Counted from the stretch's first letter, positions 2-25,168 are shown. The stretch is DNA of 64,000 nt from Candidatus Kryptoniota bacterium (GCA_024641705.1 JAHECO010000002.1:8282-72281), one strand, 5' to 3'. A program made the numbers and translations. Notes: generated from the letters alone by a model not told the origin.

Positions 2-61
2 AAGGTCTATAGAATAAAAGACACGACCGAAGAAGCCCAGGGAGGCGGAGAGACCAAATGA
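2..61 (+). CDS. 3' end (19 codons) of a gene truncated by the window edge; product not identifiable (by position possibly the SpmA-like partner of the next gene)
   Basis: Frame 2 is open from the window edge (KVYRIKDTTEEAQGGGETK). Its TGA at 59-61 overlaps the ATG at 58 as ATGA. The SpmA idea rests on synteny only. Confidence 0.3.
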   Translation, partial: KVYRIKDTTEEAQGGGETK

Positions 62-594
62 TCAGGCAGATACTGGAAGCTCTCTCCATCATAGCCATCC
101 CGCTCATTGTTGCCGGGTTCGTCGCATACGCCGCGAAGAAGAAGGTGCCGGTGTACGAATCGTTCGTGGCCGGAGCGAAGGGAGGCTTCGAGATCGCGAT
201 TAAGATCATTCCGTACCTCGTAGCAATGCTCGTCGCGATAGGAATTTTCAGGGCAAGCGGCGCAATGGAGCTGCTGGTCAACGCGCTGTCGCCGGTCGCG
301 CGACTGATCGGGATGCCCCCTGAAGCTCTTCCGATGGCGCTCCTGCGGCCGCTCAGTGGAAGCGGTTCGCTCGGCTTGATGGCCGACATAATGAAAAAAT
401 ATGGCCCGGATTCCTTCATCGGGATACTCGTATCGACAATGTACGGCAGCAGTGAAACGACTTTCTATGTCCTGGCCGTCTACTTCGGCGCGGTCAACGT
501 GTACCGCACCCGCCACGCTGTAGCGGCAGGTTTGATAGCGGACTTCGTAGGAATGCTCGGAGCCCTGCTCATATGCAAAATACTTTTCGGATAA
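58..594 (+). CDS. Nucleoside-recognition-domain membrane protein, SpmB-like (spore maturation protein B family)
   Basis: 178-aa polytopic membrane protein. Stretches such as RPLSGSGSLGLMADIMKKYGPDSFIG and TFYVLAVYFGAVNV resemble the SpmB/Gate-domain family as I remember it. Confidence 0.7.
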   Translation: MIRQILEALSIIAIPLIVAGFVAYAAKKKVPVYESFVAGAKGGFEIAIKIIPYLVAMLVAIGIFRASGAMELLVNALSPVARLIGMPPEALPMALLRPLSGSGSLGLMADIMKKYGPDSFIGILVSTMYGSSETTFYVLAVYFGAVNVYRTRHAVAAGLIADFVGMLGALLICKILFG

Positions 595-609
595 TCAATG
601 AGGATAAAC

Positions 610-1953
610 ATGAAGACACTAATCGTGCTTTTGACTTCAACTCTCATCCTGAGCGCTTCGGCGTTTGCTCAGAACTATCCCAAACCGATGCTGGCGCCGG
701 GTGAGAGCCAGATCGCGGGGGGGCTCGGGATCTCATGGATAAACGAGAATGGCACTACCACGCCATATTACATGGTCGGCATAATGCCCGACCTCCAGTT
801 CGGAAAGATCGGCGTGGGGCTCGACCTCACCCTCCGTATTTCGACCAACAGCGGCAAGATCCGCAAAGCCGACTGGTCGGACGGCGCCTACCGCAAGGTG
901 ATCAGGTACATCAGCTGGGGGCAGAAGCATGACCCAGTGTATGCGAAGATAGGACAGCTCGACATGGCGACTATCGGACACGGTTTCATCGTATACAATT
1001 ACAGTAATAGCCCGAGCTACGACGATCGGAGGATCGGAGCGGAACTCGACCTCGATTTCACGAAGTTCGGATTCGAAACGATGTACGGCGACTTCAAGCA
1101 GGCTGGCGTGATCGGCGGAAGGGGCTATGTCAGGCCATTGAAGTTCACCACGCTGGCCGGCATCCCCGTCATCGGCGGGTTCGAGCTCGGAGCGACTTAC
1201 GTTACCGACCAGAACGACAACTCCGGCATGGTTTTGAGATCGATCTTCCCCGTTCCCGCGCCAAGTTCGGGACCGCCCTATTTCACCCAGGACAGGGGCA
1301 AGATCGCTGAATACGGCTTCGACGCGGGGTTACCGGTTCTCCGGATACCCTTCATGGACGCCGACCTCTACTACGACTATGCGCAAATACATAACTTCGG
1401 TCACGGCTCCGCCGTCGGCGTACTCCTCAACTTCAACGGCCTCGGGGTCGCAAAGGCATCTGTAAAACTGGAGCACCAGTGGGTCGGTGAACAGTTCATT
1501 CCCGAATATTTCGATCAGTTCTATGAGCTTAACCGATATGTCCCGGGTGACTCCGGCTACTTCAGCAAAGCAACTCAGCTTGCGAACGCGCCGAAGGGAC
1601 AGGGCTGGTACGGCCAGCTGACGATTGCAGTCCTGCAGAACTTCCAAATTGTCGGCGGCTACCGCGGCATAGACCACGATCCGAACGGCGGCCTGCTCCA
1701 CCTCGAGACGCGCTTCCCGAATGTCATCCCGATGATCGCTTTCAGCGCCGGCTACGACAGGTGGGGGATACAGGGCTTCAAGGACGCATTCCAGCTCGAC
1801 CAGCGTTCGCTCCTCTACGCGTTCTTCGGATACAAACCGTACCCGTTCATGACTGTCGGCTTCAACTACTACTGGACCTTCATCCCGGTGAACGGCAAAT
1901 ATGAAGTCCAGAAGAGAATCGAGCCGCGCGTAATGTTCAACTTCTCCTTCTGA
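610..1953 (+). CDS. Predicted outer-membrane beta-barrel protein, function unknown
   Basis: Signal peptide MKTLIVLLTSTLILSASAFAQ, alternating-hydrophobic strand-like sequence and a C-terminal NFSF (terminal Phe typical of OMPs). GAGGA lies 5 nt upstream of the ATG at 610; the ORF track start at 598 is the alternative. Confidence 0.6.
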   Translation: MKTLIVLLTSTLILSASAFAQNYPKPMLAPGESQIAGGLGISWINENGTTTPYYMVGIMPDLQFGKIGVGLDLTLRISTNSGKIRKADWSDGAYRKVIRYISWGQKHDPVYAKIGQLDMATIGHGFIVYNYSNSPSYDDRRIGAELDLDFTKFGFETMYGDFKQAGVIGGRGYVRPLKFTTLAGIPVIGGFELGATYVTDQNDNSGMVLRSIFPVPAPSSGPPYFTQDRGKIAEYGFDAGLPVLRIPFMDADLYYDYAQIHNFGHGSAVGVLLNFNGLGVAKASVKLEHQWVGEQFIPEYFDQFYELNRYVPGDSGYFSKATQLANAPKGQGWYGQLTIAVLQNFQIVGGYRGIDHDPNGGLLHLETRFPNVIPMIAFSAGYDRWGIQGFKDAFQLDQRSLLYAFFGYKPYPFMTVGFNYYWTFIPVNGKYEVQKRIEPRVMFNFSF

Positions 1954-2006
1954 CGGAGGAACCTTTACCGTTATCCATCCTGTTAATGATTTAAAATGGA
2001 GATGGA

Positions 2007-2414
2007 ATGGTGAAAAAAGGTTGGTTGGTCTTCCCCGTCCTTGTCGCCATGGGACTCGGTGGCCTGTCGATACACGATAAAGTATACGCGAAGCAGGAAG
2101 AGAAGCCGAAGTTCGGCAAGAACCTTCAGGTACTGACTTTCGTGAAGTCGAAGGAGGAGCTGAAGGGGTGGATGAGGATGATCAAGACGAGCCTCGGTGT
2201 GGACTGCGATTACTGCCACAACACGGACAATTTTGCCAGCGATGCGAAGCCTCCCAAGCGAGTCGCGCGCGTCATGATCAAGATGCTCCTGACAATACGG
2301 CAGGACTACTTCTCTTTTCCGAACGCCCCGCAGCCGACCTGCTATACCTGTCACCAGGGACATAAGAAGCCGATCAACGAGCCGTCTGGAGGATTTCCGA
2401 AAGGCGACGATTGA
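2007..2414 (+). CDS. Small secreted c-type cytochrome (resembles the photosynthetic-reaction-centre cytochrome c subunit family, PF02276-like)
   Basis: Signal peptide plus two CxxCH motifs (CDYCH and CYTCH). The context LGVDCDYCHN...KRVARVMIKM and TCYTCHQGHKKP matches my memory of that family. Confidence 0.8.
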   Translation: MVKKGWLVFPVLVAMGLGGLSIHDKVYAKQEEKPKFGKNLQVLTFVKSKEELKGWMRMIKTSLGVDCDYCHNTDNFASDAKPPKRVARVMIKMLLTIRQDYFSFPNAPQPTCYTCHQGHKKPINEPSGGFPKGDD

Positions 2415-2445
2415 TCCCGTCAGATTCGATGCGATAAGATGTCAG

Positions 2446-2473
2446 AAAGCCGGGCAAGAGCCCCGGCTTTTTT
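2446..2473 (+). terminator. Rho-independent terminator after the cytochrome gene
   Basis: Stem AGCCGGG / CCCGGCT with a 7-nt loop, followed by TTTTT and flanked by AAA. Confidence 0.6.
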
Positions 2474-2498
2474 GATCTTTGGGAGAGGAGAGGTGACT

Positions 2499-3587
2499 AT
2501 GCGAATAATATTCCTGATTCTCATGATCGCGGCAAACGCGGCATACGCCCTGCCGAGGTTCGCGATAACGACGGGGATGCAGTGCATCAACTGCCACATC
2601 AATCCGACGGGCGGCGAGCTGCAGAACAGCTACGGCAGCTCGGACTTCGTCGACGACCACCTCAGACTGGTCCCCGCACACGCCGGCGATTTCAATTTTA
2701 ATCCACAGCTCGGCGAAGATATCCTTGTCGGCGGGGATGTCAGATTTCAGTACCTCTACGACGGCAGCACAAAGAACACCACATTCCAATCGATGGAAGG
2801 CTCGGTCTACTCCTCCCTCCATCTTTACACCTCAACCAGGCTCTTCGTGAAATACGACTTCGCGAACACGGCATACGAAGCATACGGGATGTACAATTTC
2901 GGTTCAGGGGACACCCACTTAAAAGTGGGTGCTTTCTCCCCGGCGTACGGGATCAGGCTGGATGATCACACGGCGTACACACGGAGAGGCAATTTCGGAT
3001 ACCTGCAGGGGATTCCGCAGGTCGGCTTGATATTCGGCCCGGATTACAGGGGTCTCGGCGTCGAGCTCGGGTCCAAGTTCGGGGATTTCTTCGTAACCGT
3101 GGATGCGACGAACGGCGACGGGTTCTCAAACATCAATTTCAATTCGAAGAAGGCTTTCATAGGAAGAGCCGAGTATCTCACCAGGGGCGTCGTCAATTTC
3201 ATGCTCGGCGGATCGGCCTACCTTTCAGGCGGAACAAAGATGTACGGCATTCACGGTGGTGCCGGAATCGGCAAACGGCTTTCGATTCTCGCGGAGTACG
3301 ATTGGGCGAAGTCTCTCCCGAGCGCGTCCCTCCCGAGCGACGCAACTTCGAATGCGGCATTGGTCGAGGCGACGTACTATCTATCAAACGGGCTCTACGC
3401 AATGGGTCGCTTCGACTATTTCAAGACTTACGCCGACGGCCCGTACTATTCACGATACGTTCTCGGCGTAAATATTTATCCGTTTCCGCATCTCGACTTC
3501 ATGCCGCAAGTACGCTTCAATACGACAAACGCGGCGGGCGCGTCGCAGCCGTTCGAGGCGCTTGTTCAGTCGCACGTTTACTTCTGA
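2499..3587 (+). CDS. Predicted OM beta-barrel protein with an N-terminal CxxCH haem-attachment motif
   Basis: The ATG at 2499 is preceded by GGAGAGGAGAGG. Signal peptide MRIIFLILMIAANAAYA, with CINCH about a dozen residues after the predicted cleavage site. The rest is barrel-like and ends HVYF. The track start at 2439 would run through the upstream terminator. Confidence 0.6.
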   Translation: MRIIFLILMIAANAAYALPRFAITTGMQCINCHINPTGGELQNSYGSSDFVDDHLRLVPAHAGDFNFNPQLGEDILVGGDVRFQYLYDGSTKNTTFQSMEGSVYSSLHLYTSTRLFVKYDFANTAYEAYGMYNFGSGDTHLKVGAFSPAYGIRLDDHTAYTRRGNFGYLQGIPQVGLIFGPDYRGLGVELGSKFGDFFVTVDATNGDGFSNINFNSKKAFIGRAEYLTRGVVNFMLGGSAYLSGGTKMYGIHGGAGIGKRLSILAEYDWAKSLPSASLPSDATSNAALVEATYYLSNGLYAMGRFDYFKTYADGPYYSRYVLGVNIYPFPHLDFMPQVRFNTTNAAGASQPFEALVQSHVYF

Positions 3588-4675: not shown

Positions 4676-6139
4676 TCAGTATGTTGCCTGGTACACCGAG
4701 CGCCGCTGCCACTTCAGGTATCCTTCCGCGTTTGGGAAGTCAACCCCCGTGTGCTCAACGAGCCACTCGTGGGCCTCCCGCTGCTCATCAGGGTAACCGA
4801 GCCAGTAAATCCCGATTGCATTCGATAATTCGATTCGCCTTTGAACCGCGGGCCATTCCTTCAACCAGTCCTCCTTGCTCCCCGGTTCCCGCAGGTATAA
4901 AACCCCGCGACCGAAACCGAGATTATACAGCTCAGTCCTAAAGTCCATGTCCGAAAACTTCTGATAAAAGTCATTCAGCAATTGCTCTTCGAGTGCCTTT
5001 GATTCGAGTCTTGATAGTCCGTCGAATTCTTGAGCCTTGTACCACGCTGTCCATTCTTGTGCAGTCGAAAACGATTCGCCTGTTATCAAACGCAACGCAT
5101 TCAGTGCTTGGTCCATATAGCTGCGGGCAAAATATCCGGGCAGATACTCTTGAAGCGTATCTACGTCTTCAATACACTTTTCGATAACTCTTCTGCTAAA
5201 GACTAAGTTACAAGTGTGATTTGGGATTGGAGGGGACTCATAGCGCAGGATGACGCCGTCATATTGGGCGAAGAACGACTCTGGCACGGGCATTTCGCTT
5301 CTGTATTTGAAAAAGATGGTGTCACTGGCGACACGGTAAGGGATGCCGTTCCAGTACATCGGCGCACCTGCCTGGTCAATACTGAGGACACTATCTTCGC
5401 CATAGTATCCTTTCAAATAGTGAACCAGGTAATAACCTTTTGAATCGAGCGTATCGGGACCGACGACACTAGGTGCTTTCGGAACGTATCCTTCGATTAA
5501 GTGCGCATTTCCGCAAAAAATCAGCAGTTTCTGAAGTGGATGCCGCTCCAGGTACCTCTCCAACTTCAAAGCATTCACACTATCTCTTGTTGACACGAAA
5601 TAGTGATAGGTGTCTTTAACAGATGCTTTGAAGAGAGACCTTCCGGCATTCGACTTCAGGCCCATGACCTCCTCACCGTAAATATCAAACATGATTCTTT
5701 CCGTGTTTGGTAGGAATTGATTGATGCTGTCCACCCTCTCGCAAAAGTGCCTCAGATTTACTGCGAACTCAAAAAAGTCGAGAGTCATTGTCGGTAAGTA
5801 GAACCCGATCAAAGGCTGCATATTTCCGGTCGAGATGTAATCATTCAAAACATGGATCATCGTGTCGTCTTCCTCAAGAACCAGCGTCAAATGATGGACA
5901 ACTTTCTCACCGGATGAAACCATGTCCAGCCAATCATTGAGCGTTGTTGTCACGGTGAAGAAGGGTAGAACATTCTCGTGCTGAAAATCCCCGAGCATCA
6001 CTATCCTCTTGGAATTCAATTCCTGGATTAGATAGCGTCCGGGTTGTGGAAATTGGACCCTCTCCTGTGCGCGCGAACTAACCTCCGGCAATAATAGGAG
6101 TGTGAGGGCAGTGACCAGGATCTTCCCAAGATACTGCAT
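4676..6139 (-). CDS. Secreted hypothetical protein; the N-terminal half weakly recalls ChaN/Tiki/erythromycin-esterase-type folds
   Basis: Long ORF. From Met16 (ATG at 6139) there is a signal peptide MQYLGKILVTALTLLLLPEVSSRAQ. The motifs IVMLGDFQHEN and LLIFCGNAHL recall ChaN/Tiki-superfamily signatures (weak, from memory). The track start at 6184 is TTG. Confidence 0.55.
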   Translation of the reverse strand: MQYLGKILVTALTLLLLPEVSSRAQERVQFPQPGRYLIQELNSKRIVMLGDFQHENVLPFFTVTTTLNDWLDMVSSGEKVVHHLTLVLEEDDTMIHVLNDYISTGNMQPLIGFYLPTMTLDFFEFAVNLRHFCERVDSINQFLPNTERIMFDIYGEEVMGLKSNAGRSLFKASVKDTYHYFVSTRDSVNALKLERYLERHPLQKLLIFCGNAHLIEGYVPKAPSVVGPDTLDSKGYYLVHYLKGYYGEDSVLSIDQAGAPMYWNGIPYRVASDTIFFKYRSEMPVPESFFAQYDGVILRYESPPIPNHTCNLVFSRRVIEKCIEDVDTLQEYLPGYFARSYMDQALNALRLITGESFSTAQEWTAWYKAQEFDGLSRLESKALEEQLLNDFYQKFSDMDFRTELYNLGFGRGVLYLREPGSKEDWLKEWPAVQRRIELSNAIGIYWLGYPDEQREAHEWLVEHTGVDFPNAEGYLKWQRRSVYQATY

Positions 6140-6331
6140 CTTTGATAGAATAACTCTTTGGTCCATCATATTCGCATCTCCCAATCCGATTTAATCTTGA
6201 AGACCGAAAATGAAAAATGTTGAAGTTCTCTATCTGAAATAGGCCAGCCGGGGACCCTATCTACCTTTATTCTTACAACTTAGCATTTATTTAACACGCC
6301 ACGCTGGACTTTTCAAGCGCATTGCCGCGCT

Positions 6332-7756: not shown

Positions 7757-8495
7757 CTTTGCGTGTCTCCTTTATTTGTTCGACTATTTCAACCAGCACT
7801 TTCGATGCGGGCCCCTGGAAGGAGTAATCTGCGTACCGGGAAAGTGGGGTCTCCTCCACGTTCACTTCGACGACCTTGCCGCCGCTTCTTTTTACCGTCA
7901 CCGGGAGTTCCGCCGCCGGATAAACGACAGCGGATGTGCCTATGACGAACATGACATCCGCCGAGGACGCGGCTTCTTCGGCCATATTCCACTGGTCGGC
8001 GGGCAGCATCTCGCCGAACCAGACGATGTCCGGCCTTATCAGGCCGCCGCATTTCTTGCACCTGAATGACTCGTTTCCTTCAAAGTCCTCGCCGTCATAC
8101 CTCATCCCGCAGCCGAGGCAGTAGTTCCGCTCGATGTTCCCGTGAAGCTCGGCGACGTTTCGGGACCCTGCACGCCTGTGAAGGTTGTCGATGTTCTGCG
8201 TGACTACCGTGAAATGCGGGAAGATCTTCTCCATATCGACAAGTGACATATGAGCAGGATTCGGTTTGGACAGCCTGGTTATGTGGCGTCGGTGCTCGTA
8301 CCACTCCGAGACCAGCTGGGGATTTCTCAGGAACGCGTCGAAGCTCGCAAGTTCCTCGGGCTTCAGCTTGCTCCACAAGCCGTCTTCGCCGCGGAATGTA
8401 GGGATCCCGCTCTCCGCGGAAATGCCCGCGCCTGTCAACGCCACGACCTCTTTCGCAGACAAGAGGATCTTCTGGAGCTCATCGGGCAGTTTCAT
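7740..8495 (-). CDS. cobB: NAD-dependent protein deacylase, Sir2 family
   Basis: GAGISAESGIPTFRG, TQNIDNLH and the Zn motif CLGCG...CKKCGG. The ATG at 8495 overlaps the upstream TGA as ATGA. The 43-codon extension in the track lies inside the upstream gene. Confidence 0.9.
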   Translation of the reverse strand: MKLPDELQKILLSAKEVVALTGAGISAESGIPTFRGEDGLWSKLKPEELASFDAFLRNPQLVSEWYEHRRHITRLSKPNPAHMSLVDMEKIFPHFTVVTQNIDNLHRRAGSRNVAELHGNIERNYCLGCGMRYDGEDFEGNESFRCKKCGGLIRPDIVWFGEMLPADQWNMAEEAASSADVMFVIGTSAVVYPAAELPVTVKRSGGKVVEVNVEETPLSRYADYSFQGPASKVLVEIVEQIKETRKVAKGG

Positions 8496-10912
8496 GGTGC
8501 AGGAAAAACATTGAGTCGGTGAACGGCCTGTTTCTCCGACATGGCCATCGGGAAAAACCTGAGATTTCCCTTCAGGTAATCGTTCAGGAAATCCTCGTAA
8601 TGCGGACTGAGTATCTGGCCGCATTCTCCTCCCGGCAGGCTGAAATACATGCCCGGCTTGCCCATGTCCACTATCATTCTCATCGAAGGTCCGATAAGCA
8701 TATCGTAGGGGCTATCGAGAGAGTATTCTCCGTTGTTCACGGTGGTGTTGTTCCCTCCTCTCGGGAACGGACCGAGGTCATAGATGCCCCTTATGATCGA
8801 GTTCGAACTCATTGGATGTTTCAACTCCAGCGTATGGATCTTCCCCCACATCCAGTCGATCGGATGCAGGCCGAACTCATCCCGCAATTCCTGGAGAGCC
8901 TGTTCAAGACTTTGCGCGAGCTTCATATTCAACAGGCTGTCGCTGTTAGCCACCCCGTACAGTTCCCCCAGCTCTTCCGGGTGGTTCAACATCCCCTCGA
9001 GTATTCTCGTCGGCACATTGCTTATCAGCACATACCGCTTGAACAGCTGTTCGCCCAGCACGGGCCTGAAGACGTTTCCTACAAGCTTCTCGAACGCCAC
9101 ATTGAGGATTGTCGCCGCGGAGCTCTTTGCCGTTATGTTCCCGTCGAAGTTCTTGAGATATATCAGTTCCTTCGGGAAGTATCTTTCGCTGTCACAGGCC
9201 GCGAGGATCCGGTGGTTCAGCATGATCATATAATCGGAGCGATAATCCAGCTGAAGATCACGCGAAAGCGAGACGCTCATCGTATCGCGATGCGCAATGA
9301 AAGAGGTTATCCTGTCGATGCGCGCGGATGGTTCGTACAGATTTGTTATGTAATAGGGGTAGTTATCGGAAGTCGTCCGGTTGTTCGCAGTTGCGACGAA
9401 CCCGGAATTCGGGTTGTAGCTTTCCGGCAGCGACTTAAAGGGGATGAAGCTGTTCCAGACATTCCTGCTGCTATTTCCCGCCTGGGGAATAAACAGGAGC
9501 GGATAGCGGCGCAGCGGGATATTGCCGGCGGCTTTGTAGCCTATATTGCCGTCGATATCGGCGTAGACGAAATTCTGAGACGGCGCCCCGAAGTATTTGA
9601 GAGCTTCGATGAAGTCCTGGAAGTTCCGTGCGGTATTCAACAAATACATCGATCTGACCTCGTCGCTCGGCCAGTAAGCCGACCATCGAAGCGCGACGAT
9701 CCCCCCGGGTTCGCCCTGGTCTGTCCTCAGCGCGGTGGTCCTGTAGGAACTCGATATCACTCCGCTGACGACGGGACCTAGGATTGTCATACGTTTGGTG
9801 AAGATGTACGGCGAGGTCCCCTTGACATCTACCGTGTCTTCAGTCGTGATGAAGGGAAAGAGTTTGCCGTCGTACCAGTACTCGCCGGGATCGGAGGAAT
9901 CGGGCTGCATGATGTAGAAATCTGAGTCGTCTGCCATGACGTTCGTCATCCCCCACGCGATGTCCGCGTTCCGCCCGATGACGATCCCCGGTGCGCCGGG
10001 AAGCGACACCCCCATTACGTGAAGTGACGGTGAAGAGATCGACACATAGTACCATTTGGCCGGCTCACTGAAAGCCAGGTGCGGATCGTTTGCCAGAATC
10101 GCCGAGCCGCTCTCGGTATGTCTCTTAGATATTGACCAGCTGTTGCTCCCAAAACAATCGGGCGCCTTTACGCCTTCAAGGATGTCCAGGGCGCGCGAGT
10201 TGGACTCGGTGAAGCCGACAAGCGCCGAAGACAACTTCCTCGCCGCGACGGGCATCTTTCTTTCCCTCGTGCCTGAGAACAAAGGAATGAGGAGTGCCGC
10301 CTTCTGGGCACCCAGGCTGTCGTACAGCTCTCCGAATACCGGTTTCGTCCACCAGGATATGTCGAGTTCCCAGGCCATCAGCCGGGCTACCACGAAACTA
10401 TCCCGCGGCTTCCAGGGGCGCGGCGAGAACTGGAGCATTGCGAACTCGGCCGGAAAGACTTTCGCGTTCGCGATGTAGGCGTTGACCCCGTTCGCATACC
10501 ACCGGAGTATCTCCTTGCTGAGCGGAGAACATGCCTTGTAGGCGGAATCTGCCATCTCCTTAAAGCGAAGTGTCCGAAACAACTCATCCACCGCCAGGGT
10601 CTTGCTTCCGAATACCTCGCTCAACTTCCCTTCTCCCACCCGCCTGTACATCTCCATCTGGAAAAGCCGGTCCTGGGCGTGCACGAATCCGAGCGCGAAA
10701 TACGCGTCCGAATCGGAATGTGCAACGATATATGGCACACCGAGGCTGTCGCGGAGCATCTGCGCAGTCCCGCCGAGGCCGGCAACGTCGATGCGACCGT
10801 CGAGCTGCGGCAAAGAAGACGTCCCGATCTTCTTCAGCAGCAGGATTACGCTTACAAGGATGATGAAAAGTGTAAGGGAAACAACCGCTGAGATGAACTT
10901 AAACCGTTTCAC
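8492..10912 (-). CDS. Penicillin acylase family Ntn hydrolase (penicillin amidase / acyl-homoserine-lactone acylase-like)
   Basis: N-terminal TM/signal sequence, ALGFVHAQDRLFQMEMYRR, and a GSNSW nucleophile-Ser context. The size (806 aa) is typical. Confidence 0.9.
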   Translation of the reverse strand: MKRFKFISAVVSLTLFIILVSVILLLKKIGTSSLPQLDGRIDVAGLGGTAQMLRDSLGVPYIVAHSDSDAYFALGFVHAQDRLFQMEMYRRVGEGKLSEVFGSKTLAVDELFRTLRFKEMADSAYKACSPLSKEILRWYANGVNAYIANAKVFPAEFAMLQFSPRPWKPRDSFVVARLMAWELDISWWTKPVFGELYDSLGAQKAALLIPLFSGTRERKMPVAARKLSSALVGFTESNSRALDILEGVKAPDCFGSNSWSISKRHTESGSAILANDPHLAFSEPAKWYYVSISSPSLHVMGVSLPGAPGIVIGRNADIAWGMTNVMADDSDFYIMQPDSSDPGEYWYDGKLFPFITTEDTVDVKGTSPYIFTKRMTILGPVVSGVISSSYRTTALRTDQGEPGGIVALRWSAYWPSDEVRSMYLLNTARNFQDFIEALKYFGAPSQNFVYADIDGNIGYKAAGNIPLRRYPLLFIPQAGNSSRNVWNSFIPFKSLPESYNPNSGFVATANNRTTSDNYPYYITNLYEPSARIDRITSFIAHRDTMSVSLSRDLQLDYRSDYMIMLNHRILAACDSERYFPKELIYLKNFDGNITAKSSAATILNVAFEKLVGNVFRPVLGEQLFKRYVLISNVPTRILEGMLNHPEELGELYGVANSDSLLNMKLAQSLEQALQELRDEFGLHPIDWMWGKIHTLELKHPMSSNSIIRGIYDLGPFPRGGNNTTVNNGEYSLDSPYDMLIGPSMRMIVDMGKPGMYFSLPGGECGQILSPHYEDFLNDYLKGNLRFFPMAMSEKQAVHRLNVFPAP

Positions 10913-10980: not shown

Positions 10981-11679
10981 TTACCGCAGGATGCTGAACA
11001 GGAATCCCGCCGAGACCGAAGGCACGAGGTATCTTGTCTGAGGCATGAACGAAGACGAGAAGAGGTCATAGTACCCCATCCCGCCGTTAAGATACACGCC
11101 GACGTATCTATCTATCCTGAGAGAGTTGCCGACTCCTATATATGCCGAGGCGCCGGAGGTGAAACGCGAATTAGGCACCGAGTAGTTTATGAAGGAACCG
11201 TTGGTCGGATAAGCCCATCCGAACAACAACCCCGCCGAGCTCTCGCCGTAAAGCGTATAACCGAGAGTCCCCAGCGTCGACCGCAAAAGCGGGATCCTGA
11301 TCCCGACCTGCACCGGCATAAGTATCCCCTGCGATTCCGGTATCGATCCGAACGACCGGGTCACGGGAGAGAACAGGTTTATTATCGATATTCTCAGGAA
11401 AATGTTGCTGCGGAGCGGTATGTCGCCGACTGCGCCGGCACCCAGCGAGGTCGCGTTCATAAGGAACGGCGAGTACTCCGGCATGGCGATGGCACCCTGC
11501 CTGGAAGAAAACGGGGAGACATCCCCCGTAAAAAGATTGTCTCCCGAATTAGCGTGCAGATACTTCTGGCCGTAGCTGAGATTGTCCGGACAAATGCCGC
11601 CGCCGAGTGTTTGCGCCTCAGCCGCAACTGACGCCAGTATAATGATGAACGGTACCAGGAATATTCTATATCGTGTCAT
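10981..11679 (-). CDS. Small predicted OM beta-barrel protein, function unknown
   Basis: Signal peptide (IIILASVAAEAQ), Gly/Ser/Tyr-rich strand-like sequence, and 8 nt downstream of the preceding barrel gene. Confidence 0.5.
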   Translation of the reverse strand: MTRYRIFLVPFIIILASVAAEAQTLGGGICPDNLSYGQKYLHANSGDNLFTGDVSPFSSRQGAIAMPEYSPFLMNATSLGAGAVGDIPLRSNIFLRISIINLFSPVTRSFGSIPESQGILMPVQVGIRIPLLRSTLGTLGYTLYGESSAGLLFGWAYPTNGSFINYSVPNSRFTSGASAYIGVGNSLRIDRYVGVYLNGGMGYYDLFSSSFMPQTRYLVPSVSAGFLFSILR

Positions 11680-11687
11680 GGTTCGCC

Positions 11688-13145
11688 TCAGAAATCGTAT
11701 TTGAAGGTAATCACAATATTCGAATTCGTCACTTTCTCATTACTGGTCCTCTGAGTAATGAGTTGGTTGCCGCTGGTATAGTAGCTGTACTCATATGAAC
11801 TCGTGTTCCACCAGCCGTACTGGTATGCCATGTCGAAGCTCACTGTGTTCTGGATTTTCAATCCTACGCCGCCGCTCATGAACTTCTGAGCCTGATTGTA
11901 TGTGTCGCCGGAATACGGCGACTCGATGTATCCTCCGCCGACCCTGAGGCACGGGACAAAGAGGGAGTACCTTGGGTCCACCAGCGCGTACTCAACGCCG
12001 CCGCGAAGTGTCAAAGCCCCCCGAAACTCTTGTCTTATCTGGCTATTCAGATTACTTATGAAATCCGAGGGGAGAGTGGAATTACTGAATTCAAGCTGCG
12101 AATAATCGGTATACTCCATGTCCGCTGCCACCGTAAGCTGGGATGTCCCGCCCGAAGCGCCGATTCCGAACTTGATAGGAGTAGTGACATCGTAGCTATT
12201 GTTCCCAGTCGGAAGTGTGTATGTCAGCGGGCTCGGCGGAGTGGTGTAGTAGGCCGTGCCTTTGTCGTTGAAATTGTCCGTCACAGTGTAGAATGACGGG
12301 AAGGTAATCGTCGCGCCGATCCTGGCCATGGTATTGCCTTCCACGTCGCGCACCCTGTACATCAAACCCACCTCTGCATTCCACCCGCTTATGTCCTGAT
12401 GATCCTCGTTGTTCAATGTGAACGAACTGAAGTAGAGCGGATTGTAATTGTAAATCCCTTGCGGGTCGGACTCCGTAAACCTTCTCGTATACTCGTAGGA
12501 CCCGCTCAGGAGGTTGAGCGTAATACCTATGGAAAAGTCGGGGGCGACGTCCAGACCCATCGACGCAAACCACTTGTTGATGCCTCCTGTCCTTTCTTCC
12601 GTCCCGTTCTGCTGCACGTTTTTCGTGATGAGAGGATTTCCAGCCGCATCCTCGAGATAGAGCATATAAGGGATATCCAGAGTGGTGTCGGGGTCGTAAA
12701 GCGAAGGAACGATGGAGCTGTTGGTATTGAACCCTTTAAAGGACAGTGTCGAGTTGAAATCGATTCCCCTGCCGTACCCGAAGGATATAACGAAACTCCC
12801 CCTCGTCGTGGGAAATGGATATACAATTCCCAGGTTTGTCAGATCGGTCTGGGTAATCGAAGAAGAAGTGTTCGTCCCGAGATATGTTGCATTGTCGCTG
12901 TAGCCCAGGAAGTTCAGTCCCAAAGTAACTTCGGACTCCCGCGATTGAGCCAACCCGGCGGGGTTGAAGAAAGCCGCGTCGAACCCCTGGGCCAGGCCCG
13001 TCATCGCGTTCCCCATCGCGATGGATCTGGCACTGACTCCATAACCGGTTTCGGCAAGTCTCAGAGCATCTTCAGGATACTGAGCATAAGCATTGAATGA
13101 AACTGATAGCATTAGGGAAGTGAGAAGGAATAATCTGCTTTTCAT
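11688..13145 (-). CDS. FadL/PorV-like OM beta-barrel protein
   Basis: Signal peptide ending AYAQ. The N-terminal hatch-like motif SIAMGNAMTG...FFNPAGLA is as in FadL-type transporters. The C-terminus is FKYDF. Confidence 0.6.
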   Translation of the reverse strand: MKSRLFLLTSLMLSVSFNAYAQYPEDALRLAETGYGVSARSIAMGNAMTGLAQGFDAAFFNPAGLAQSRESEVTLGLNFLGYSDNATYLGTNTSSSITQTDLTNLGIVYPFPTTRGSFVISFGYGRGIDFNSTLSFKGFNTNSSIVPSLYDPDTTLDIPYMLYLEDAAGNPLITKNVQQNGTEERTGGINKWFASMGLDVAPDFSIGITLNLLSGSYEYTRRFTESDPQGIYNYNPLYFSSFTLNNEDHQDISGWNAEVGLMYRVRDVEGNTMARIGATITFPSFYTVTDNFNDKGTAYYTTPPSPLTYTLPTGNNSYDVTTPIKFGIGASGGTSQLTVAADMEYTDYSQLEFSNSTLPSDFISNLNSQIRQEFRGALTLRGGVEYALVDPRYSLFVPCLRVGGGYIESPYSGDTYNQAQKFMSGGVGLKIQNTVSFDMAYQYGWWNTSSYEYSYYTSGNQLITQRTSNEKVTNSNIVITFKYDF

Positions 13146-13264
13146 ACTAATACCGTCTTGTTAAAGAGAATTTTCCGAATCGAGTCTACCGTAAGCGGCG
13201 GGTCGGTAGGACAGCTACGAGATTACGCGGCCCGCCGGTGAAACCAAAACATCAAAGAACAGTA

Positions 13265-14707
13265 TCAGTGTCGGGCTCTTCCTCCGCTTCCTCCGCTTGC
13301 ACCCTGTGAACTCCTCGCCGGGGCCGATGCCGTTCGCATCACCGGCTGGGACGCTGCGCGGTACTCATACCGGGGAGCGCTCTGTTGAAATCGCGGCGCT
13401 TCGTAACGCGCGACCTGTTGCGCCGGCATCGAGTACTCTGCCCTCTGTCTTGTCGCCTGAATTACCCTCACTTGCCGGTAGGAAGACTGAGGACGAACTT
13501 CTCCGTTGTTGTACGAGACGTAACCGTGCCTGATCCTCGGAGGCGGGGGAGGAGGCGGCGTATTGTTCTGCGGCGGGTTATTCTGCGGAGGAGGATTGTA
13601 GCTCGGAGCCGGGTTCTGCCGCTGAGGCGGATGCGTATAACTCGGCGCATTCTCCCTTACTCGCTGCTGCGGGTTCGACTGAGGCTGAGAGTTGGGCGTC
13701 GAATTCTGCTGAGGCGGCGTATTCCTGGGCGCCTGCTCACGAACGCGCTGCTGCGGGTTCGACTGCGGAGAGCTCGGAGCCTGGCTCGGATTCCGTTGCG
13801 GGAGAGGAGTATAGCTCGGTGCTCTCTCCCTCACCCTGTGCTGGGGATTCGGTGTGGCGTTCTGCTGAGTCGGCATGTACACCGGTGCTCGCTCGCGGGT
13901 GCGCGGCGCACTCGACGTGCCCCTGACGCCAGTGGCGGCCGGTTCGCCGGTAGAACCCACCCTGGTACGCGTTACAGTTCCTTCCCGGACGTTACCGGAA
14001 ACTCCGGTGGAAGCATTGGCAGTCCCTGTGTTTGCCTGACCAGTAAGAGCATTCGGTGGGATTACATCGCCGCCATAACCCGCCCGTCCATACCGCGTGT
14101 CGCCGCTGTTCCTCACTCTCGGGGTCGGCGTACCAGACATATAAGGAGTATACCACGGATAGAGGCTGTAGGGAGAATACGGCGAATAAACGTTGTAGTA
14201 CGGGCTGTTAGGATAATATCCCGCCATATAGGGGTAGTAGTAAGAAGGGTAGTTTCCCCATCCTGCCAAACCACCGTATGAAAACGGACCGCCGTACCAT
14301 GTGTTTAATCCGAACCCGAGGTACCAGGTGTCCATCGGCCACCAAGCGGCGCTGGGACTGAACATGCTGTAGGTCCAGAGCGGCTGGTACATATAAGGCG
14401 AGCCGTAATACCCGTACCCATAACCATAAGGTGGCCACGCGTTACCATAGCCGTAGCCGCCCATGCCGTAGCTCCCGTAACCGTAGTCGTTGTACCCATA
14501 GTTGGGATTCACAGCGAGGGCGCCCGTCGAATCATAATATGTGGGGCTATAACCGTACTGTGAACTGTCCTGGGCAGTTGCACTCGAGTTGTACGATGAC
14601 CCGTAATCACCGTAATTGCCGCTCGTGGTCGCGAATTCCGTATAACAACCCGACAACCCTGACACAACCAGGAGCGACACTGCCAAAACTGCTAATCTTG
14701 TTTTCAT
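13265..14707 (-). CDS. Low-complexity lipoprotein: Tyr/Gly/Pro/Trp-rich half followed by Pro/Gln/Asn/Arg-rich tandem repeats
   Basis: The ATG at 14707 gives MKTRLAVLAVSLLVVSGLSGC (lipobox LSGC), preceded by GAGGTGA. The ORF is long despite extreme composition. The opposite-strand ORF 13385..14281 is an Arg-rich mirror artefact. Confidence 0.7.
   Translation of the reverse strand: MKTRLAVLAVSLLVVSGLSGCYTEFATTSGNYGDYGSSYNSSATAQDSSQYGYSPTYYDSTGALAVNPNYGYNDYGYGSYGMGGYGYGNAWPPYGYGYGYYGSPYMYQPLWTYSMFSPSAAWWPMDTWYLGFGLNTWYGGPFSYGGLAGWGNYPSYYYPYMAGYYPNSPYYNVYSPYSPYSLYPWYTPYMSGTPTPRVRNSGDTRYGRAGYGGDVIPPNALTGQANTGTANASTGVSGNVREGTVTRTRVGSTGEPAATGVRGTSSAPRTRERAPVYMPTQQNATPNPQHRVRERAPSYTPLPQRNPSQAPSSPQSNPQQRVREQAPRNTPPQQNSTPNSQPQSNPQQRVRENAPSYTHPPQRQNPAPSYNPPPQNNPPQNNTPPPPPPPRIRHGYVSYNNGEVRPQSSYRQVRVIQATRQRAEYSMPAQQVARYEAPRFQQSAPRYEYRAASQPVMRTASAPARSSQGASGGSGGRARH
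13536..13905 (-). repeat. In-frame tandem repeats (about 28-30 codons, 4 units) inside the lipoprotein gene
   Basis: The 20-nt string CGCTGCTGCGGGTTCGACTG occurs exactly at 13662-13681 and 13746-13765 (84-nt spacing). The protein units are R(V/T)RE.AP.Y.P..Q...NPQQ. Confidence 0.8.
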
Positions 14708-14717
14708 GGCAATCACC

Positions 14718-15005
14718 TCACTTTTTTTGACGCAAACCTTCGTCGCTGCGCTTAACTCCACCCGATGCCTGATGCGGTCCGGTCACATCGTTATGCCCCC
14801 TTCGCCATTGACCGCGGCCGTAATCGAAATAGAAAGGCGCGAAGATGACGGGGGCTGCACCCGTCTGCCAATTCATCCCTCCGTCCAGAAGAACGGCCGG
14901 TGGAGCGTAGAATCTCTGCGCCTGAGCCGCAAGGCCCACGGTGCTCAGTGTGTCTCCCGTGACCGTTCCGCCGGCGATTAGAGCCGATATAAGAACCACA
15001 ATCAT
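14718..15005 (-). CDS. Small secreted hypothetical protein (95 aa)
   Basis: ATG preceded by GAGGAA, with a hydrophobic N-terminus MIVVLISALIAGG. It ends 10 nt before the lipoprotein gene. There is no family match. Confidence 0.45.
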   Translation of the reverse strand: MIVVLISALIAGGTVTGDTLSTVGLAAQAQRFYAPPAVLLDGGMNWQTGAAPVIFAPFYFDYGRGQWRRGHNDVTGPHQASGGVKRSDEGLRQKK

Positions 15006-21563: not shown

Positions 21564-23339
21564 TTACTTGATGTTGAAAAACTTCGCTTCGGGATGGTGA
21601 ACGACTATCGCGGTCGTGCTCTGTTCTGGGACGAGCTGGAACTCTTCCGTGAGAGTCATGCCGATCCGGTCGGGGTGCAGTAGTTCGAACAGCTTCGCCT
21701 GGTCCTCGAGGTCCGGGCAGGCGGGATATCCGAAGGAGTAGCGTGATCCCTGGTAGCCCTGCGAGAAGAGCCGCTTCTTGTCCGGAGCGTCCTGGGAATC
21801 TATGCCGAGCTCGGTCCTGACGATCTTGTGCCAGTACTCCGCAAGCGCCTCGGCACTCTCAACGCTCAGCCCGTGGAGGTATAGATAGTCCTGGTAATTG
21901 CCGGCGTCAAACAGGTGTTTCGTGTACTCGCTCGCCTTCGAGCCGATCGTAACCGCCTGAACTGCGATCACGTCGAATAGACCGGATTCGACCGGCTTGA
22001 AAAAATCGGATATGCATAGGAACCGGTCGTCCATTTGCCGCGGGAATGTGAACCTAAACCACTCTTTGAGGTCACTGCCCTTCAGGTTTCCCGGCCTCAC
22101 AGAATTCCATTTTCCGTACAAATCTTCTTCTGCCGCCGGCCGGTAGATTATGAGGTCGTCCGCTGAAGACCGACACGGGAAATAGCCGTAGATGACCCTG
22201 GGTTCGAACATCCGCTCGCGTTTAACGGTAAGTTTTTGTTCATCGAGTACCGGATAGATTTGGGATTCAAGGAGCTTCTTATACTCTTCCTCGGTTTTGC
22301 CTTTTTTCGAGAATTGCCACTGACCGCGGAAAAGCGCGACCTCGTTAAGGTATTCCCAGATCTTCTCGAGCTTAATATTGGTTGCGACCATGCTTCCGTA
22401 GAACGGAGGCGTCGGAACCGCGACTTCTCTATTCACTTTGCTTCGGACCTTTACGTTTATTCCCTCTCCCCTCGCCGGTTCCCATGTCTCTTTCCGGTTC
22501 AGTTCGAGCGTTTTGTCGAGAGCGGACGAAGCGGTTGTCACGTTCGCCAGCTCGGCAATATCGATTTCCCCCGACTTCACGCCTTCTCCCGACATCGCGG
22601 GATCGTGCAGGCGGGACATGAAGTGCAGACCGTCGAACGCATCGTTCGCGTACGAAACATAGCCGTCATAGACTCTCCGCAGATCCTGCTCGACATATTT
22701 CCTCGTAAGCGCTGCCCCGCCGAGTACGACCGGTATTTTCAAACCCCGCTGTTCCATCTGCTCGAGGTTCTCCTTCATGATAACGGTAGACTTGACGAGG
22801 AGGCCGCTCATCCCGATGGCGTCGGCCGAGTTCGTCTCCGCAGCTTCGATCATGTTCTCGATCGGGACTTTGATTCCAAGATTTATTACGCGGTAGCCGT
22901 TGTTGGTCAGGATTATATCGACGAGGTTCTTCCCGATGTCATGCACGTCCCCCTTGACGGTGGCCAGGACGATCGTTCCCTTCTGCGAGCCCTCCACGCG
23001 TTCCATGAAGGGCTCGAGGTGTTTCACGGCGGCCTTCATCGTCTCGGCCGACTGCAGGACGAAGGGGAGCTGCATCTGACCGCTGCCGAAGAGCTCGCCT
23101 ACTACTCTCATCCCATCCAGCAGGATCTCGTTGATGATCTGGAGCGGTGGATACTTGTCGAGGGCCTTCTTCAGGTCACCGTCGATCCCGATCTTGTCGC
23201 CGTCGATGATCCGTCGTTTCAATTTCTCTTCGAGGCTCAGCGACTCCACAGATTCCACGGCCCTGGTGCCGGACTTTGCACCCGCGTAATAATTCATCAG
23301 CTCGACAAGCGGATCGTAAACGCATTTCAACTCTGCCAT
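21564..23339 (-). CDS. metH: Methionine synthase, C-terminal half (B12 cap, B12-binding and AdoMet-activation domains) as a separate ORF
   Basis: DxHxxG motif (GDVHDIGKNLV), MSGLL, and the activation-domain motif FGYPACPD. The ATG overlaps the upstream TGA (TGATG). Confidence 0.9.
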   Translation of the reverse strand: MAELKCVYDPLVELMNYYAGAKSGTRAVESVESLSLEEKLKRRIIDGDKIGIDGDLKKALDKYPPLQIINEILLDGMRVVGELFGSGQMQLPFVLQSAETMKAAVKHLEPFMERVEGSQKGTIVLATVKGDVHDIGKNLVDIILTNNGYRVINLGIKVPIENMIEAAETNSADAIGMSGLLVKSTVIMKENLEQMEQRGLKIPVVLGGAALTRKYVEQDLRRVYDGYVSYANDAFDGLHFMSRLHDPAMSGEGVKSGEIDIAELANVTTASSALDKTLELNRKETWEPARGEGINVKVRSKVNREVAVPTPPFYGSMVATNIKLEKIWEYLNEVALFRGQWQFSKKGKTEEEYKKLLESQIYPVLDEQKLTVKRERMFEPRVIYGYFPCRSSADDLIIYRPAAEEDLYGKWNSVRPGNLKGSDLKEWFRFTFPRQMDDRFLCISDFFKPVESGLFDVIAVQAVTIGSKASEYTKHLFDAGNYQDYLYLHGLSVESAEALAEYWHKIVRTELGIDSQDAPDKKRLFSQGYQGSRYSFGYPACPDLEDQAKLFELLHPDRIGMTLTEEFQLVPEQSTTAIVVHHPEAKFFNIK

Positions 23340-25168
23340 CAGCTCTCCGCCGCCTCGAACTGCCGTTCGTCGAATATGAGCTGCCGGGATATTTCTCTAC
23401 CGCGTTCCTCGATCTTGTAGAGCGGCATGATCTTCTGCGCGTTGACTATCGCCAGGTCGAGACCTGCCTCAATGGCATAGTAAAGGAAGACCGAGTTGAG
23501 GACATGACGGGCATGGGCGTTGAGGCCGAAAGAGGCATTCGATACACCGAGCAACGTGTAAGCCCGCGGAAATTCGTGCTTTATAAGCTTGATAGCCGCT
23601 ATAGTCTCGATGCCGGCCTTGCGAAACTCCTCGTCACCGGATCCGAGCGTAAATGTCAGCGTGTCGAATATCAGGTCCTCTTCGCGCATGCCGTACTTGT
23701 TCACGGCAAGATCGCGGATCCTTCCGGCAACCTCCAGCTTCTTCTTCCGGGTCTTGGCCATTCCCGACTCGTCTATCGTGAGCGCAATAACCGCCGCGCC
23801 GTACTTCCTGCAGAGCGGCAGGACATTCTTCATCCGCTCCTCGCCATCTTCGAGATTTATGGAATTTACTATCGCCCTGCCGGCGTACCGCTTAAGTGCC
23901 TCCTCGATAACCTTGTATTCCGTCGAGTCGATCATGAGGGGGAGCGCCACCTGGGTGTTGAATCTCTTCATCACCTCCCGCATGTCGCGGACCTCGTCCC
24001 TGCCGACGTATGCCACGCACAGGTCGAGTATGTGGGCCCCTTCCTTTATCTGCTCCTTCGCCAGCTGGACCATGCCGTCGTAGTTCTCGGCGAGGAGGAG
24101 TTCCTTGAATTTCTTGGAACCGTTCGCGTTGCAGCGCTCGCCGACGATGACCGGAGGCGGGTCGAGGTGGAGCGCCACGCTCGAATAGATCGACGATACC
24201 GACGGAGTGTAAGAGACCTCTCTCCGCATCGGTTTTGCCTGGGACGCGATCTTGACGAGTCTCGAGATATGTTCGGGAGTCGTGCCGCAGCAGCCACCTA
24301 TGATGCTCACGCCGAACTCCGTGACAAACCTCTTCATCCAGAACTCCAGCTCGTCGGGCGTGAGGTGGTAGCATGCCTGCCCGCCGATATTTTCGGGAAG
24401 GCCGGCGTTCGGCATGACAAAAACCGGTTTCGGCGAGTTCTCGCAGAGGTACCGGACATTCTCTTCCATTTCTTTCGGACCCGTCGCGCAGTTCATCCCG
24501 AAGACGGTCACTATGTCGTATGGCTCGATAGTCGTAAGGGCCGCCGAAATCTCAGTCCCCATGAGCATCGTGCCCATCGTCTCTATAGTGATCGAGACAA
24601 TTACCGCGATCGGGTTGCCTGTTTCTTCTATATGTTCATGTATCGCCGCCAGCGCCGCTTTGGTCTGGAGCAAATCCTGACAAGTTTCGACGATGAGGAG
24701 GTCCGCGCCGCCGTCGACGAGTCCTTTTACCTGTACTCTGTAAGAGTCCCGCATTTCGTCGAACTCTATATGCCCGAGCGACGGAAGCTTCGTTGTCGGG
24801 CCCATCGAACCGGCGACGTACCTGCGCCTGTCCGGGGTCGAATACTTGTCGACCATCTTCCGCGCGATCTCGGCCGATCGTTTGTTTATCTCGTAAGACT
24901 TATCGGCGAGGCCGTACTCGGCAAGCACTATCGATGCTCCGCCAAAGGAGTTTGTCTCGATAACATCTACACCGACATCTAGGAAACCGCAGTGGACTTC
25001 CTCGGGCGCTTCCGGCCTGGAAATGTTCAGATACTCGTTGCAGCCGGCAAGATCCTCTCCACCGAAATCGGCGGCGGAGAGGTTCTGCCTCTGCAGACTT
25101 GTTCCGGTCGCCCCGTCGAAAACGAGGACCCTATGTTTCAAAATTTCGAGAAGTTCCTGTCCTGTCAT
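23339..25168 (-). CDS. metH: Methionine synthase, N-terminal half (homocysteine S-methyltransferase and pterin-binding domains) as a separate ORF
   Basis: VLVFDGATGT, the Zn-ligand region GGCCGTTPEHI, and pterin-binding blocks (ILDLCVAYVGRDE, LMIDSTE, NSINLEDGEE). Confidence 0.9.
   Translation of the reverse strand: MTGQELLEILKHRVLVFDGATGTSLQRQNLSAADFGGEDLAGCNEYLNISRPEAPEEVHCGFLDVGVDVIETNSFGGASIVLAEYGLADKSYEINKRSAEIARKMVDKYSTPDRRRYVAGSMGPTTKLPSLGHIEFDEMRDSYRVQVKGLVDGGADLLIVETCQDLLQTKAALAAIHEHIEETGNPIAVIVSITIETMGTMLMGTEISAALTTIEPYDIVTVFGMNCATGPKEMEENVRYLCENSPKPVFVMPNAGLPENIGGQACYHLTPDELEFWMKRFVTEFGVSIIGGCCGTTPEHISRLVKIASQAKPMRREVSYTPSVSSIYSSVALHLDPPPVIVGERCNANGSKKFKELLLAENYDGMVQLAKEQIKEGAHILDLCVAYVGRDEVRDMREVMKRFNTQVALPLMIDSTEYKVIEEALKRYAGRAIVNSINLEDGEERMKNVLPLCRKYGAAVIALTIDESGMAKTRKKKLEVAGRIRDLAVNKYGMREEDLIFDTLTFTLGSGDEEFRKAGIETIAAIKLIKHEFPRAYTLLGVSNASFGLNAHARHVLNSVFLYYAIEAGLDLAIVNAQKIMPLYKIEERGREISRQLIFDERQFEAAES

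Follow-up and report, generated by a model that had tools for sequence, protein, structure and literature searches.

A Cyc2-homologous cytochrome-porin gene of a separate clade, paired with a dihaem cytochrome gene in Candidatus Kryptoniota

Near the start of a stretch of Candidatus Kryptoniota DNA, analysed as one window of 64,000 nucleotides, three co-directional genes lie on the plus strand, referred to here as open reading frames (ORFs) 1 to 3. The last of them, ORF3 (2499..3587, 362 amino acids), probably encodes an outer-membrane fused monohaem cytochrome-porin that exchanges electrons by way of ORF2, the dihaem cytochrome encoded directly upstream (2007..2414, 135 amino acids), and that represents a distinct clade homologous to Cyc2. 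Cyc2, for which the term 'fused cytochrome-porin' is used (Keffer et al. 2021, PMC8406198), oxidises Fe(II) at the outer membrane in Acidithiobacillus and in neutrophilic iron oxidisers; the features described for it are a signal peptide, a single CXXCH with an AXPXFAR[Q/K][T/Y] motif before it and a PXL motif after it, and a 16-strand porin modelled on OprO/OprP (PMC8406198). An earlier note on this DNA had taken a haem site on the barrel polypeptide itself to be an undescribed arrangement, a claim that falls because Cyc2 already has exactly such an architecture (PMC8406198) and the ORF3 family is homologous to it.

The haem site of ORF3 is a conserved feature of the protein family. The frame of ORF3 is open from 2439, and the start at 2499 (MRIIF...) is given both by a gene call made independently on a public contig of the same sequence and by 36 aligned homologues. 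The putative signal peptide, MRIIFLILMIAANAAYA, would be cleaved between AYA and LP, and is followed by the predicted mature N-terminus and haem module (2550..2627, residues 18-43, LPRFA....CINCHINPTGGELQN). The sole CxxCH of the protein, the CINCH at residues 29-33 (nucleotides 2583-2597), places C29 12 residues past the predicted cleavage site; ORF3 has two cysteines in all, both within this motif, and two is also the family median per protein. A homologue search of 5.8 billion proteins yielded 96 close homologues, and a profile search of 1.84 billion cluster representatives yielded 1890 matches at E<=1e-3 and 821 at E<=1e-10. Among 207 full-length homologues, reaching down to about 30% identity, C29, C32 and H33 are 100% conserved, and the conservation of the N-terminal CxxCH, on which the earlier note had made its reading depend, is thus borne out. 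The flanking sequence is conserved as well: P19, N35, P36, G38 and G39, taken together with the three haem-site residues, are 86-100% conserved in the same 207 sequences, giving a family signature of [A]LPRFA-x6-CxxCH-x-NP[TS]GG-x-[LM]RN.

It is consequently scarcely credible that ORF3 is an ordinary porin in which a CxxCH arose by chance, since neither an invariant motif nor its conserved surroundings would be expected of such a protein. The circumstance that could be held in favour of a chance motif is the lack of any Pfam or NCBIfam family match to ORF3, but canonical Cyc2 is likewise without an NCBIfam model. A search of PDB sequences with the ORF3 profile returned noise only, and the multihaem protein 8e5f was rejected as a relative, its weak N-terminal match being driven by the signal peptide and the CxxCH.

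Conservation in the family extends beyond the haem signature to M99, Y104, D156, H157, R162, E189 and H359, each at least 93% conserved. Three of these residues fall in a family-specific loop, RLDDHTAYTR (2955..2984, residues 153-162), located between predicted strands 5 and 6, which is unvarying in the 36-sequence alignment and which retains D156 in 93%, H157 in 96% and R162 in 95% of the 207 sequences. From this pattern of conservation, the loop is a candidate haem-distal or metal-binding site, and it may be speculated that the D155-D156-H157 segment, M99 and H359 supply a distal haem ligand or a metal site.

The remainder of ORF3 is predicted to form a beta-barrel. An AlphaFold2 model built on the 36-sequence alignment (predicted local distance difference test score, pLDDT, 64.5; predicted template-modelling score, pTM, 0.68) has 16 strands between residues 75 and 361, and the barrel as annotated occupies 2721..3584 (residues 75-362) and ends in the C-terminal HVYF. 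When this model was compared with the PDB using Foldseek, the matches were 16-strand porins, general and specific, among them PorB, OmpU, OprP (2o4v) and OprO (4rjw), with E values of 1e-11 to 1e-9. The fold of these porins is like that predicted for ORF3, with template-modelling (TM) scores of 0.5-0.6, but they are without a haem module and their sequence identity to ORF3 is only 9-15%. The earlier proposal that an outer-membrane barrel and a CxxCH are present on one polypeptide is thus upheld by the modelled 16-strand barrel and the conserved motif.

The closest known system to ORF3 is Cyc2, represented by Acidithiobacillus ferrooxidans Cyc2, Mariprofundus ferrooxydans Cyc2PV-1 and Leptospirillum Cyt572 (Keffer et al. 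2021, McAllister et al. 2020), with which it has in common a predicted 16-strand barrel of the OprP/OprO type and one CxxCH, positioned 11-12 residues from the start of the mature protein. To assemble a canonical set for comparison, a back-translated pattern for the Cyc2 motif was run against 185,579 species genomes, which gave 81 complete proteins, a set that is itself motif-selected, from Sideroxydans, Gallionella, Zetaproteobacteria, Candidatus Nitrospira defluvii, Acidobacteriota, an Ignavibacteriales metagenome-assembled genome (MAG) and others. ORF3 scored 39.7 bits against a hidden Markov model (HMM) built from these 81 sequences, and the ORF3-family HMM scored 52.7 bits on the Cyc2 of Candidatus Nitrospira defluvii, the searches being significant both ways. 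Profile-profile comparison by hhalign aligned the ORF3 family with canonical Cyc2 over its whole length (326 columns) at a probability of 99.3% and an E value of 3.5e-20; the barrel alone matched the Cyc2 barrel (probability 97.3%, E 2.4e-11), and the N-terminal haem module alone also matched Cyc2 (probability 97.8%, E 1e-12). The ORF1 barrel family, used as a control, proved unrelated to ORF3 or to Cyc2, with probabilities of 3% and 1%, respectively. Because haem module and barrel each match Cyc2 on their own and the control does not, the two families descend from a common ancestor that was already fused. Cyc2 and the ORF3 family agree in the distance between the first alanine of the A-x-P-x-F-A motif and the first cysteine; the alanine is at -12, where it probably ends the signal peptide, and a downstream N-x-[FY]-G is likewise common to both. 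Thus ORF3 resembles Cyc2 in its sequence, its N-terminal signal peptide, its single N-terminal CXXCH and, as modelled, its 16-strand OprO/OprP-like porin. A search for a solved structure of canonical Cyc2 gave none.

Homology is not identity of type, and several of the features by which Keffer et al. 2021 and FeGenie define Cyc2 operationally are absent from the ORF3 family. At the position of AXPXFAR[Q/K][T/Y], ORF3 reads A-L-P-R-F-A-I-T-T, which has the A-x-P-x-F-A part without the R[Q/K][T/Y], and PxFAR[Q/K][T/Y] occurs in 0 of the 207 family members. In place of PXL the sequence is CINCH-INPTGGEL, and none of the 207 has a CxxCH followed by 3-4 residues and PxL; the hhalign alignment places a 3-residue insertion after the CxxCH of the ORF3 family, giving CxxCHxNPTGG. 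The family is also shorter, with a median length of 374 amino acids against 456 for canonical Cyc2, and ORF3, at 362, falls below the 365-amino-acid minimum applied to Cyc2, as do 45 of the 207 members. Conversely, the DDH of the RLDDHTAYTR loop is found in only 1 of the 81 canonical sequences. In a joint alignment of 52 sampled family members with the 81 canonical proteins, average-linkage clustering, a grouping by identity rather than a phylogeny, has a first split that falls exactly between the two sets, and mean identity between them is 15.4%, as compared with 23.4% within canonical Cyc2.

Both types can be encoded in close proximity. On a metagenomic contig of 1.09 Mb (L182), an ORF3-family gene (8001-9074) is accompanied about 2 kb downstream, on the opposite strand, by a gene for a canonical Cyc2 of 403 amino acids (AIPAFARKYNMSCKTCH), and canonical Cyc2 is also present in an Ignavibacteriales MAG (L067). 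The presence of both types on the one contig, together with the canonical gene in that MAG, implies that they are paralogous types rather than one type drifting within one lineage. The ORF3 family is homologous to Cyc2 and yet, judged by its sequence signatures CxxCHxNPTGG and RLDDHTAYTR, a distinct and shorter sister clade. Cyc2 homologues have been reported in MAGs of the Ignavibacteriaceae and Ignavibacteriales (PMC6344600, PMC8478452), in reports from which the two types are not distinguishable, and the literature on Kryptonia and Ignavibacteria yielded only such general reports of Cyc2 homologues and no paper describing the ORF3 clade.

The gene directly upstream of ORF3 encodes a c-type cytochrome. 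ORF2 has a signal peptide and two haem sites, CDYCH at nucleotides 2205-2219 and CYTCH at 2340-2354, and it matches both Pfam PF02276 (51.1 bits against a cut-off of 22.4, 1.6e-13) and NCBIfam NF033196, c_type_nonphoto (82.3 bits against a cut-off of 70), so that its identification in the earlier note as a secreted PF02276-like c-type cytochrome stands. The nearest described system is the tetrahaem reaction-centre cytochrome PufC, with NF033196 its non-photosynthetic counterpart family, and the part of the PF02276 match displayed covers model positions 46-139 of 310; unlike PufC, ORF2 is of 135 amino acids, has two haems rather than four and is encoded by a non-phototroph. Both CxxCH motifs are retained in 66 of 68 ORF2 homologues, and the close homologues, at 56% identity or more, are from Candidatus Kryptoniota.

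Linkage of the two genes is consistent within this group. At every close-clade locus with enough upstream flank (L002, L129, L131, L133 and L214), the ORF3 orthologue is immediately preceded by an ORF2 orthologue, and a partial one is present at the contig edge in L132. The co-occurrence of cytochrome and barrel that the earlier note had suggested checking therefore holds in every sufficiently flanked close Kryptoniota locus and does not extend beyond the close clade: distant ORF2 relatives occur alone, in unrelated and uninformative contexts, and linkage of an ORF2-type cytochrome to a cytochrome-porin is restricted to the Kryptoniota clade. ORF2 is, then, the probable periplasmic redox partner of ORF3.

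The arrangement of the locus is as it had been described, with three co-directional genes, short gaps and a terminator-like hairpin before ORF3 all present. The gap between ORF2 and ORF3 contains, on the plus strand, a hairpin and T-run resembling an intrinsic terminator (2444..2478), the hairpin itself (2444-2472) having an 11-bp stem with 6 G-C pairs and being followed by T6. From the T-run to the ORF3 start codon there are just 27 nucleotides, ribosome-binding site included, which leaves no space for a promoter downstream of the hairpin, and any ORF3 transcript must therefore begin upstream of it and read through; the earlier suggestion that ORF3 may have its own promoter there is accordingly abandoned. 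The closest relative (L129, 80% identity) has a similar hairpin with a T8 run, and no hairpin is evident in relatives at 63-70% identity (L131, L133 and L002). The simplest reading is that the hairpin acts as a partial terminator or as an element of mRNA 3' ends and so would make the transcript levels of ORF2 and ORF3 unequal. Scans with Rfam models and for tRNA genes gave no match.

By analogy with Cyc2, a path for electrons through these two proteins can be proposed. ORF3 would be exported and would acquire its haem from a cytochrome c maturation system, so that an N-terminal module of about 55 residues, bearing one covalent haem, would be joined to a 16-strand barrel. The protein would then take its place in the outer membrane, its haem module sitting at the periplasmic opening of its own barrel or inside it, the position proposed for the haem module of Cyc2 (PMC8406198). 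A small redox-active solute, most likely Fe2+, would enter the pore, electrons would pass between the solute and ORF2, and ORF2 would serve as periplasmic carrier to the inner-membrane respiratory chain. On the same analogy, oxidation of Fe2+ is the most likely activity of ORF3. Components with which such a path could connect are on record for the group (PMC4737851): ccmABC has been reported in 15-16 of the original Candidatus Kryptonia genomes, and genomes of Candidatus Kryptonia are also reported to encode a menaquinol-cytochrome c reductase and a subunit of cytochrome c oxidase.

The same two proteins could also pass electrons outward, from the respiratory chain to chelated Fe(III), humic quinones or cell-surface redox proteins, a direction that we regard as rather unlikely, although it has several points in its favour. 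Relatives of ORF3 occur in the Ignavibacteria, a group with members described as reducers of Fe(III) and humic substances and with Cyc2 homologues reported in those MAGs (PMC6344600); iron respiration has been proposed for Candidatus Kryptonia (PMC4737851); and at several loci the neighbouring gene encodes a haem protein or cupredoxin bearing a type IX secretion C-terminal domain, which points to extracellular placement. Against these stand the relatives that have been tested biochemically, Cyc2 and Cyt572, all of which are Fe(II) oxidases (PMC8406198). The residues around the ORF2 haem sites point the same way: a methionine lies in the segment before each site, which, on sequence and general knowledge of PufC, suggests high-potential His/Met haems and fits uptake of electrons better than their export.

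Whether a redox role is to be expected of the family at large can be judged from its gene neighbourhoods, which were analysed at 83 loci, 46 of them with at least 600 nucleotides on both sides. A small redox protein is encoded on the same strand within 500 nucleotides at 12 of these 46 loci, and the proteins are of at least four unrelated kinds that differ by lineage: dihaem cytochromes like ORF2, a monohaem cytochrome of the PSCyt1 type, a Temptin_C-type protein that has one haem site and a type IX secretion tail, and cupredoxins; as background, CxxCH occurs in 9 of 332 (2.7%) non-adjacent ORFs of the same loci. Replacement of one partner by unrelated redox proteins fits what would be expected of an electron-transfer protein, and some family members are in this respect like Cyc2, in adjoining a gene for a small periplasmic cytochrome or a cupredoxin. 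In A. ferrooxidans, cyc2 is found in the rus operon together with cyc1 and rusticyanin.

These neighbourhoods bear on a further reading, in which the haem of ORF3 is not an electron carrier at all and serves instead as a structural plug, as a gating or sensing cofactor, or as part of a channel for haem or iron uptake. The conserved DDH...R loop with M99 and H359 could, judged by conservation, make a metal- or ligand-binding site of the sort such a role would use, and most family loci are without an adjoining redox gene. The reading is nevertheless quite improbable: a redox function is proven for the enzyme family to which ORF3 and its relatives are homologous, their neighbouring genes are enriched in small cytochromes and cupredoxins, and we know of no haem-uptake porin with covalent CxxCH haem attachment.

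The proposal that ORF3 is an electron-exchanging cytochrome-porin served by ORF2 has to be weighed against a number of observations that do not favour it. Residue 42 of ORF3 (nucleotides 2622-2624) is Gln, in contrast to the Arg of 98% of the 207 family members. The confidence of the AlphaFold2 model is moderate overall and is low at the haem module (residues 24-72) and at the RLDDHTAYTR loop. ORF3 departs from two of the motifs that define Cyc2 and from the 365-amino-acid filter, as a result of which the function of Cyc2 is not transferable to it with confidence. Roughly three quarters of the family loci have no adjacent redox gene, and a strong terminator-like hairpin separates ORF2 from ORF3. 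Finally, scans of the 64-kb window revealed no cytochrome-maturation gene and no other respiratory gene, and no ORF in it other than ORF2 (two haems) and ORF3 (one haem) contains a CxxCH. The position of residue 42 belongs to the GGxxRN part of the haem signature, and the closest relatives of ORF3, at 77-81% identity, keep the Arg.

The first of the three genes, ORF1 (610..1953, 447 amino acids, plus strand), has a different set of partners. ORF1 has a signal peptide and a C-terminal NFSF, and its AlphaFold2 model is all-beta (pLDDT 78), consistent with a predicted outer-membrane barrel; the best Foldseek matches of the model are barrels of the Occ/OprD group at an E value of 2e-9, but with TM scores of only about 0.35. 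There is no Pfam match, and assignment to NCBIfam NF047543 (ImpL63) was rejected, the score of 50.2 bits against a cut-off of 1000 representing distant partial similarity only. ImpL63 is a Leptospira protein, to which the barrel of about 445 amino acids in this genetic arrangement is distantly similar. The frame of ORF1 runs from 598 or 610 to 1953, the start at 610 being given by independent gene calls and by homologues, and thus begins 3-15 nucleotides past the stop of a Gate-domain gene (58..594, plus strand; PF07670, Pfam Gate 1.2e-12), the second of two such genes, which encodes a membrane protein and is the conserved partner of ORF1. Two PF07670 membrane proteins followed by a barrel, represented here by window positions 58-1953, make up a conserved three-gene unit of Kryptoniota and Ignavibacteria, and synteny of the two Gate-domain genes with ORF1 is observed at L001, L002, L209, L210 and L214. 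Homologues of ORF1 in Ignavibacteria have 44-47% identity, occur without a neighbouring cytochrome and are better conserved than those of ORF3, and in Candidatus Thermokryptus mobilis and in an Ignavibacterium the unit is found without ORF2 or ORF3 downstream.

This distribution decides against the earlier proposal that ORF1, ORF2 and ORF3 form one undescribed minimal porin-cytochrome module, with two barrels cooperating around a soluble cytochrome. The proposal could draw on the co-directional genes and their short gaps, with no terminator predicted between ORF1 and ORF2, and on the retention of all three genes in close relatives (L002, L129, L133 and L214), but it is now highly improbable and largely refuted by synteny. 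The Gate-domain genes and ORF1 are kept together without any cytochrome in Candidatus Thermokryptus mobilis and in the Ignavibacterium, relatives of ORF3 outside the close clade are found with neither ORF1 nor ORF2 beside them, and one locus (L131) has ORF2 and ORF3 with no ORF1-like gene detected. Moreover, the ORF1 barrel is unrelated to ORF3 or Cyc2 in the hhalign control described above, and ORF3 has an architecture that had already been described for Cyc2. Because the Gate-domain neighbours are constant where cytochromes are absent, ORF1 is a bystander to the ORF2-ORF3 pair: ORF1 is part of the Gate-domain unit, and one Kryptoniota subclade has the ORF2-ORF3 pair directly downstream of it. 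Other outer-membrane electron conduits, MtrCAB, MtoAB, PioAB and the Geobacter porin-cytochrome complexes, likewise combine a barrel with c-type haem, but there the barrel is haem-free, larger and sheathes a separate multihaem cytochrome, whereas in ORF3 the haem site is on the barrel polypeptide and the partner has two haems. Assignment of the locus to an Mtr/Pio/Mto-type complex was likewise rejected, as there is no pairing of a haem-free barrel with a multihaem cytochrome and the conserved partners of ORF1 are Gate-domain genes.

The family to which ORF3 belongs is large, with at least about 1,900 clusters at 50% identity; Ignavibacteria and Kryptoniota form its centre, and it extends to MAGs labelled Proteobacteria. 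A broader proposal, which we advance tentatively and hold to be somewhat short of likely, is that it constitutes an unrecognised fourth major clade of Cyc2-type fused cytochrome-porins, acting as a general trans-outer-membrane electron relay with interchangeable partners, some of them haem or copper proteins exported to the cell surface by type IX secretion.

Several of the neighbouring genes are of interest in their own right. Monohaem Temptin_C proteins of 224-233 amino acids are encoded directly upstream of ORF3-family genes at three loci (L159, at about 640-1315, L169 and L172), and L169 has a further copy of this type, of 309 amino acids, at a distance of 774 nucleotides upstream. Of these proteins, that of L159 was scanned against Pfam, and it has type IX secretion tail domain matches, sub-threshold on Por_Secre_tail. 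The haem signature of these proteins, SCxNCHVxPxGGGxRNAFG, has the same spacing as the CxxCHVNPTGGGxRNxYG of the ORF3 family, and hhalign aligns the two N-terminal regions over 46 columns (probability 98.2%, E 3e-14), a sequence likeness from which it appears that the haem module of the porin may be common to a cell-surface protein family. Cupredoxins with a type-1 copper site motif adjoin ORF3-family genes on three Ignavibacteriaceae-type contigs (L006:7311-7706, L175:9273-9668 and L166:689-1318); two of these cupredoxins are lipoproteins, the third carries a type IX secretion tail, and the pairing recalls that of Cyc2 and rusticyanin in Acidithiobacillus. Upstream of a distant family member (L213:2954-4921) there are three genes, one for a CxxCH protein that matches FlgD-Ig (PF13860) faintly, one for a protein of the YceI family and one for a lipoprotein that is PSCyt1-like by eye but has CAVSDCH (CX4CH) instead of CxxCH.

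Elsewhere in the window, on the minus strand, 4676-6184 encodes a secreted-looking protein of 502 amino acids without a Pfam family, and 10981-14761 encodes three consecutive proteins of 232, 485 and 498 amino acids, also without a Pfam family. A cobalamin-dependent methionine synthase (21564-25168, minus strand) is apparently split into two genes that abut at nucleotide 23339, one with the homocysteine S-methyltransferase and pterin-binding domains and the other with the domains for B12 binding and activation.

The design of a barrel polypeptide that bears haem is already established, and the interest of ORF3 lies in the large Cyc2-like sister clade that it represents, here with a dihaem, PufC-like cytochrome as its partner. 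Inference of microbial iron oxidation from metagenomes relies mainly on Cyc2 as its genetic marker, and the published Cyc2 motif screen would exclude every member of the ORF3 clade examined, the 365-amino-acid filter about a fifth of them. A homologous clade that fails the marker criteria would go uncounted or be misfiled, and the outer-membrane redox potential of Ignavibacteria- and Kryptoniota-type bacteria, recovered here from many metagenome assemblies, would be understated as a result. With the same scaffold, a different haem pocket, an extra conserved loop and varied partners, the ORF3 clade offers a natural comparison for the mechanism of fused cytochrome-porins.

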